64,000 nt of DNA. Origin: Escherichia coli. GTDB taxonomy: Bacteria; Pseudomonadota; Gammaproteobacteria; Enterobacterales; Enterobacteriaceae. Positions 38,384 to 38,456 of the stretch are shown here, piece after piece. Numbering within the stretch: position 1 is the stretch's first letter; every line of letters starts with the position of its first letter. The stretch is taken from assembly GCF_003334305.1 (NCBI RefSeq), contig NZ_QOWS01000011.1. The stretch is one strand, 5' to 3'. The position numbers and the translations under genes are program-made. The notes under the pieces are model-generated. The model was not told where the DNA came from, ran no database searches, and saw only the letters and a program-made list of their open reading frames with translations.

Positions 38384-38456
38384 GAATTGAAAATGATAAC
38401 TATTTCTAATAGTGGTGCTACCCGAAACGGGTTTATTTCAACCTGTTTCGGGTCGG
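38384..38456 (-). promoter_or_regulatory. fyuA promoter region: Fur-box-like AT-rich site and palindromic YbtA-box repeat
   Basis: gaattgaaaatgataactatttc (38384-38406) resembles the Fur consensus; ctacccgaaacgggtttatttcaacctgtttcgggt (38417-38455) is an inverted repeat shared with the irp2 promoter. Confidence 0.6.

Follow-up and report, generated by a model that had tools for sequence, protein, structure and literature searches.

The palindrome upstream of fyuA in the Escherichia coli high-pathogenicity island is very probably a YbtA operator with an adjacent Fur-type box

A long palindrome lies in front of the yersiniabactin receptor gene fyuA, and the question raised by this locus is what the palindrome is for: a binding site for a protein, an RNA structure at the end of the preceding transcript, or an intergenic repeat with no specific role. 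We analysed it within a 64-kb stretch of E. coli DNA, referred to below as the window, whose fyuA-ybt region is the Yersinia high-pathogenicity island (HPI) in E. coli. The palindrome sits in the 130-bp gap between the stop codon of ybtE and the start codon of fyuA, both of which are encoded on the minus strand. In the RefSeq annotation of identical E. coli DNA, ybtE and fyuA flank the element and the other genes of the ybt cluster are likewise named; ybtT and ybtU come after ybtE in the gene list. The regulator gene ybtA is located in cis on the same island, 19 kb from the fyuA element, and its product carries an AraC-type C-terminal HTH domain. The original prediction took the palindrome for the repeat of the activator YbtA accompanied by a Fur operator, and this identification is supported by the neighbouring genes, the recurrence and conservation of the element, and the literature on ybt promoters. 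We consider it very probable that YbtA uses the element as its operator at the fyuA promoter, and that Fe-Fur would block this promoter through an adjacent Fur box in iron-replete conditions. Sequence, recurrence and conservation, as well as the fixed register of the Fur/-10 block, were established in the present analysis, and the binding of YbtA and Fur and its regulatory outcome are taken from the literature. Coordinates of the features are collected in Table 1.

Table 1. Genes, YbtA boxes, Fur-type boxes and predicted promoter hexamers in the window.
Feature	Position	Strand	Basis or score
fyuA, TonB-dependent yersiniabactin receptor, the regulated gene	36312-38333	-	RefSeq naming on identical DNA
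Fur-box-like site GAAAATGATAACTATTTCT	38389-38407	+	Consensus scan, 13/19 to GATAATGATAATCATTATC; 12 bp from palindrome
Predicted -10 hexamer TATCAT, 5/6	38393-38398	-	Gapless alignment with TATTAT of irp2 and ybtP promoters
Weak predicted -35 hexamer GTAGCA, 3/6, extending into the end of RS2	38416-38421	-	Placed by 17-bp spacing to predicted -10
Proximal YbtA box, RS2, ACCCGTTTCGGGT plus conserved AG	38418-38432	-	GGGTAG nearly invariant in 9 species
Spacer TGAAATAA, including conserved AAATAA	38433-38440	-	AAATA among best-kept columns of 18-promoter alignment
Distal YbtA box, RS1 in promoter direction, ACCCGAAACAGGT	38441-38453	-	Invariant in five other species bar one A/G position
ybtE, last gene of the irp2 operon	38464-40041	-	RefSeq naming on identical DNA
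irp1	41942-51433		
irp2	to ~57646		
irp2 Fur box GTTAATAATTATTATTCTC	57673-57691	-	14/19 on this strand, 15/19 on complementary strand
Second full RS1-AAATAA-RS2-AG copy, irp2 promoter	57701-57736	-	Template score 27/29
ybtA, AraC-family regulator presumed to bind the boxes	57819-58778	-	99% identical to named YbtA proteins
Degenerate third copy, toward ybtP, within ybtA leader	58804-58839	+	Template score 22/29; shuffles at most 19
ybtA/ybtP Fur box GTGAATAATAACCATTATC	58850-58868	-	15/19
ybtP, divergent	from 58945	+	

A repeat search resolved the palindrome into two 14-nt arms (38420-38433 and 38440-38453) that are complementary at 13 of 14 positions (93%) and enclose a loop of 6 nt. The complete string, ctacccgaaacgggtttatttcaacctgtttcgggt, occupies 38418-38453, which places it 85-120 nt upstream of the fyuA ATG. 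Its borders had been put at 38417-38455 and were off by 1-2 nt; the palindrome itself is real and well above chance. With 14-nt arms, at most one mismatch and a loop of 3-12 nt as criteria, six inverted repeats of equal quality were counted in the window, compared to a mean of 0.25 in 20 dinucleotide-preserving shuffles. The other five comprise a copy at irp2, two palindromes outside the island, and two hairpins, one just 3' of the stop codon of fyuA and one just 3' of that of ybtA. That the palindrome recurs at irp2 had been predicted and is borne out by exact matches: the 12-mer ACCCGAAACNGG has exactly four perfect occurrences in the window, all of which fall within two inverted pairs (38420/38442 and 57703/57725) with the same start-to-start spacing of 22 nt.

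Read toward fyuA on the minus strand, the element has the order ACCCGAAACAGGT TGAAATAA ACCCGTTTCGGGT AG. Each of its 13-mer boxes is a hyphenated dyad, ACCCG-N3-CGGGT, and the two 13-bp boxes are 21 bp apart from start to start, corresponding to two helical turns. The RS sites of the fyuA, irp2 and ybtA/irp6 promoters have been described as the YbtA binding repeats RS1 and RS2; in the proposed model a YbtA homodimer binds these sites together with yersiniabactin, and YbtA activates irp2, fyuA and irp6 while repressing its own gene (PMC5634559). Every HPI operon leader has been reported to contain a Fur box and a pseudo-repeat YbtA RS, and induction by Cu(II)-yersiniabactin is YbtA-dependent (PMC8725597). 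For the YbtA sites, PMC5634559, PMC8725597 and PMC11225919 each cite Fetherston 1996 and Anisimov 2005, and the placement of YbtA on exactly these bases comes from such secondary citations of the two studies. A YbtA RS1/RS2 operator with a Fur box is thus already known, described since 1996 and 2005, and the E. coli copy in the window shares with the published RS the island, the neighbours, the three promoters and the pairing with a Fur box, with nothing substantive that differs. What we add is modest, namely a cross-genus alignment of an oriented, deeply conserved RS-Fur cassette and the weak consensus match of the fyuA Fur box.

A motif search across the window had been proposed together with the original prediction, and it located the 36-nt module only at the three YbtA-controlled promoters, with scores of 27, 27 and 22 of 29; all other sites in the window reached at most 19. 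The fyuA, irp2 and ybtP promoters can be aligned without gaps from RS1 through the Fur/-10 block. At irp2, the Fur box GTTAATAATTATTATTCTC is identical to a pESI site that binds Fur by EMSA, and the ybtA/ybtP Fur box GTGAATAATAACCATTATC is one base off another pESI site bound in the same manner; in that Salmonella pESI study, Fur EMSA was positive on both the irp2 and the ybtA promoter (PMC11225919). The ybtA transcription start was placed 5 bp downstream of the Fur box (PMC11225919); transferred to the window, the degenerate RS pair then falls within the leader of ybtA, which fits autorepression. The ybtA-ybtP intergenic region holds a further inverted repeat beyond the Fur box, ACGCCA-N17-TGGCGT at about 58875-58905, the ACGCCA/TGGCGT arms of which are also present in the Serratia symbiotica locus (about 9840-9875). 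A third YbtA site (RS3) in the ybtA-ybtP region is mentioned in the literature; ACGCCA-N17-TGGCGT is unlike the ACCCG-N3-CGGGT boxes.

How the element relates to the start of fyuA transcription depends on the core promoter, whose -35 and -10 placement we infer from the DNA sequence. The predicted -10 hexamer, TATCAT, follows the AG of the element after 19 nt and is embedded in an AT-rich block. Relative to a predicted transcription start near 38386, the centres of the two boxes would lie at about -61 and about -40. A generic sigma-70 scan of the fyuA gap called no minus-strand promoter, as is expected for an activator-dependent promoter.

The Fur-box-like site that had been expected 10 bp from the palindrome is present, at a distance of 12 bp (38389-38407). 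By score it does not rise above chance, as 29 sites in the window reach at least 13/19 in the consensus scan, many of them in coding sequence. It consists of two good GATAAT-type hexamers (GAAAAT and GATAAC) and a poor third one, and it overlaps and contains the predicted -10 TATCAT. In a gapless alignment, the fyuA Fur/-10 block falls in register with the Fur boxes of irp2 and ybtA/ybtP, and across five other species its only change is a single base in R. ornithinolytica. For irp2 on pESI, the Fur box has likewise been reported to overlap a predicted -10 (PMC11225919). In addition, psn/fyuA is approximately 12-fold repressed by iron, and Fur binding sequences are found in all four ybt operons (reviewed in PMC10136090). 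Measured against the 19-bp Fur box GATAATGATAATCATTATC, the fyuA site is alike in being AT-rich, in overlapping a predicted -10 and in its position homologous to the EMSA-bound irp2 and ybtA boxes, but it is weaker, with 13/19 compared to 15/19 for the irp2 and ybtA/ybtP boxes. We accept it as a putative Fur box on positional homology and the literature, not on score. A perfect 9-nt inverted repeat (TCATTTTCA / TGAAAATGA, at 38324-38332 and 38388-38396) additionally connects the opening codons of fyuA with the Fur/-10 block. With a transcription start near 38386, its upstream arm would be untranscribed, and the repeat may therefore be due to chance or place a second Fur-like half-site on the start codon.

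The element is well kept in other copies of the island. Of 5426 complete E. coli genomes, 2267 carry a 311-bp piece spanning it with an identity of 95% or more, and among the 2268 matching records 2256 reach 99% or more. The region of the element is preserved to the same threshold of 95% in 198 plasmid records, which come from Salmonella, Klebsiella and Escherichia. A search for FyuA contigs yielded five further loci (K. michiganensis, K. oxytoca, R. ornithinolytica, K. indica and S. diarizonae), with no Yersinia among them. FyuA in these loci is only 92-97% identical, and ACCCGAAAC.GG...AAATAA..CCGTTTCGGGTAGC is invariant; the bases just upstream of this core, beside ybtE, vary freely in the same five species. 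Loss of the palindrome from other HPI copies would have spoken against the original prediction, and the palindrome was retained in E. coli, in the plasmids and in the five species. To reach further, we chose distant loci by the identity of their YbtA (Serratia symbiotica, 79%; Pluralibacter gergoviae, 57%; Pectobacterium, 55%; Burkholderia oklahomensis, 49%) and scored the 36-nt template (maximum 29) over both strands of each whole locus, with a shuffle maximum of 19. All scores of at least 20/29 came from intergenic DNA in front of a receptor, synthetase or ABC-transporter gene, at three sites each in Serratia symbiotica and Pectobacterium and two in Burkholderia oklahomensis. Each of these distant sites is then followed, in unchanged register and without gaps, by a Fur/-10 block resembling GATTATCATT. 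The sites in Pluralibacter gergoviae scored 17-18/29, which is background, and were not counted as evidence.

The most serious rival to a protein site is an RNA hairpin in which the irp2-irp1-ybtUTE transcript would end and which could act as a terminator or 3'-end stabilizer that insulates fyuA, either instead of or besides the YbtA operator. Its position is suggestive, since RS1, and with it the palindrome, begins 10 nt after the ybtE stop codon and forms the sole hairpin between ybtE and fyuA, and the sense-strand RNA is predicted to fold with -23.3 kcal/mol (z = -4.5 compared to shuffles). However, of the two parts of a Rho-independent terminator only the stem is present: on the minus strand, which is the sense strand, it is followed by AGCACCAC with no U-tract, and the terminator scan was empty there. 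The only terminator call at the site, a 5-bp mini-hairpin with a T-rich tail, belongs to the plus strand, from which no gene is transcribed there. We reject termination as the primary function on the missing sense-strand U-tract and the missing scan call; both strands fold well, as those of any palindrome would. The other copies are also difficult to reconcile with a 3'-end role. The irp2 copy stands behind a separate canonical ybtA terminator (a 15-bp GC stem, then TTCTTT) and is not needed as a terminator there, and the third copy, in a divergent promoter region, is at no 3' end. Close HPI copies contain no compensatory changes, and in the distant clusters the boxes persist while the dyad decays: complementarity of the long arms falls from 12/13 in the HPI to 5-9/13, the complementarity of the central triplets (AAA/TTT in the HPI) is lost, and the loop AAATAA and the TAG are kept as sequence. 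Covariation thus gave no positive evidence for a structure. We regard the hairpin as an improbable explanation of the element, and most of the weight that we still give it concerns a possible secondary effect.

A generic intergenic repeat (REP/BIME-like or a miniature mobile palindrome) or a chance palindrome without a specific role is barely credible, for although an intergenic palindrome does occur in more than one copy, a restricted, oriented and promoter-locked distribution excludes it, with copies only at ybt promoters, at a fixed distance and orientation to the Fur/-10 block, and co-occurring with YbtA homologues across genera, a chance expectation of 0.25 such palindromes per window, and no Rfam family at the palindrome site in a gathering-threshold scan of the whole window.

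The choice of bases that are conserved also bears on the YbtA operator, the preferred reading. Over 15 distinct 36-mers, the best-kept columns are CCGA..CGGGT, AAATA and ACCCG.TTCGGGTAG. The unpaired AAATAA and the trailing TAG are kept as strongly as the arms of the palindrome. The AAATAA of the spacer would lie in the loop of a hairpin, and its conservation is therefore not explained by base pairing. Moreover, the element has a direction, as the strand in the promoter direction outscores the opposite strand at every site when scored with the 36-nt template. Conservation of loop and TAG, together with one strand that always scores higher, fits an oriented protein site. Judged by sequence conservation, it is two 13-bp boxes in a set orientation, spaced by 21 bp and followed by TAG, that have been retained, and not the potential to form a hairpin.

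It is possible to go one step further and regard the palindrome as incidental to the HPI lineage, with the oriented cassette as the functional and evolutionarily conserved unit; to us this is an evenly balanced proposition. In that reading, which for the composition of the cassette we hold in the same even balance, the unit would consist of (A/C)CCG-N3/4-CGGGT, N2-AAATAR, ACCCG-N3-CGGGTAG, 19 nt, and a Fur box containing the -10. Its proposed range, for which we see the chances as equal on both sides, would extend from Enterobacterales to Burkholderia, in yersiniabactin-like clusters where the cassette stands in gapless register before the genes for receptor, synthetase and transporter. If this were true, YbtA-type regulators would bind tandem sites with a geometry like that of araI1-I2 and not a symmetric operator, and the cassette could be used for predicting regulons of the YbtA family.

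Class-II sites of the AraC/XylS family, such as araI1-I2 and the XylS sites at Pm, consist of two sites approximately 21 bp apart, of which the proximal one touches or overlaps the -35. They are bound by a dimer of a regulator that combines a C-terminal double helix-turn-helix with an N-terminal ligand domain. By analogy, the geometry of the HPI boxes appears to resemble such class-II activator sites. The HPI boxes differ in that each is internally dyad-symmetric and the two together make one long palindrome, whereas the classical AraC/XylS sites are plain direct repeats. A second relative might be the PchR-box of the P. aeruginosa pyochelin promoters (Michel et al. 2005). It serves as operator for an AraC-type regulator that responds to a siderophore and is related to YbtA, and it precedes receptor and biosynthesis genes that are also Fur-controlled; the likeness to the YbtA operator concerns regulator and gene setting.

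Several other features of the window concern the island and its surroundings. Just 3' of the fyuA stop codon, at 36272-36308, there is a perfect palindrome with 14-bp arms (GTAAAAGGGATACC / GGTATCCCTTTTAC), which probably terminates fyuA transcription at this edge of the island. A canonical intrinsic terminator follows ybtA on the minus strand (57754-57788; a 15-bp GC-rich stem, then TTCTTTCC) and separates the ybtA stop codon from the irp2 RS boxes; ybtE has no terminator before the fyuA boxes. By the fyuA end of the island, the minus-strand ORFs at 32821-35718 have as counterparts in an identical E. coli genome a frameshifted pseudogene with an Ig-like domain and a separate gene for an inverse-autotransporter beta-domain, which suggests that an adhesin gene has been disrupted at the border of the island. 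Integration of the HPI takes place at an asn tRNA gene. Three tRNA-Asn (GTT) genes are found in the chromosomal flank, at 22635-22710 (-), 25044-25119 (-) and 26868-26943 (+), and the integrase end of the HPI is beyond the window. Farther out, a cobalamin riboswitch (Rfam RF00174, 107.8 bits) lies upstream of cobUST at 18242-18416 (+), and in the identical E. coli genome the cobalamin biosynthesis gene adjoining it is a pseudogene fragment beside an IS4 transposase remnant. A match to the enterobacterial sRNA STnc230 (RF02075, 74.8 bits) was found at 17095-17178 (-).

Taken with the published regulation, the architecture of the site leads us to infer a class-II-like geometry at the fyuA promoter. 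We propose that a YbtA dimer, which according to the literature is loaded with yersiniabactin or metal-yersiniabactin, would occupy both boxes and recruit RNA polymerase, with the promoter-proximal box abutting the weak -35. When iron is plentiful, Fe-Fur on the AT-rich box 12 bp downstream, over the predicted -10, would block the promoter. Since activation by YbtA and the block by Fur would converge on one promoter, expression of fyuA would require both iron scarcity and the presence of the siderophore.

The fyuA and ybt operons are major determinants of virulence and fitness in extraintestinal E. coli, in Klebsiella, in Yersinia and in emerging Salmonella strains with pESI. The cross-genus alignment displays the constrained bases and spacings of the operator and could guide mutagenesis or regulon prediction. 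For the pathogens that carry the island, this operator would be the meeting point of the iron signal, relayed by Fur, and the siderophore or copper-yersiniabactin signal, relayed by YbtA.
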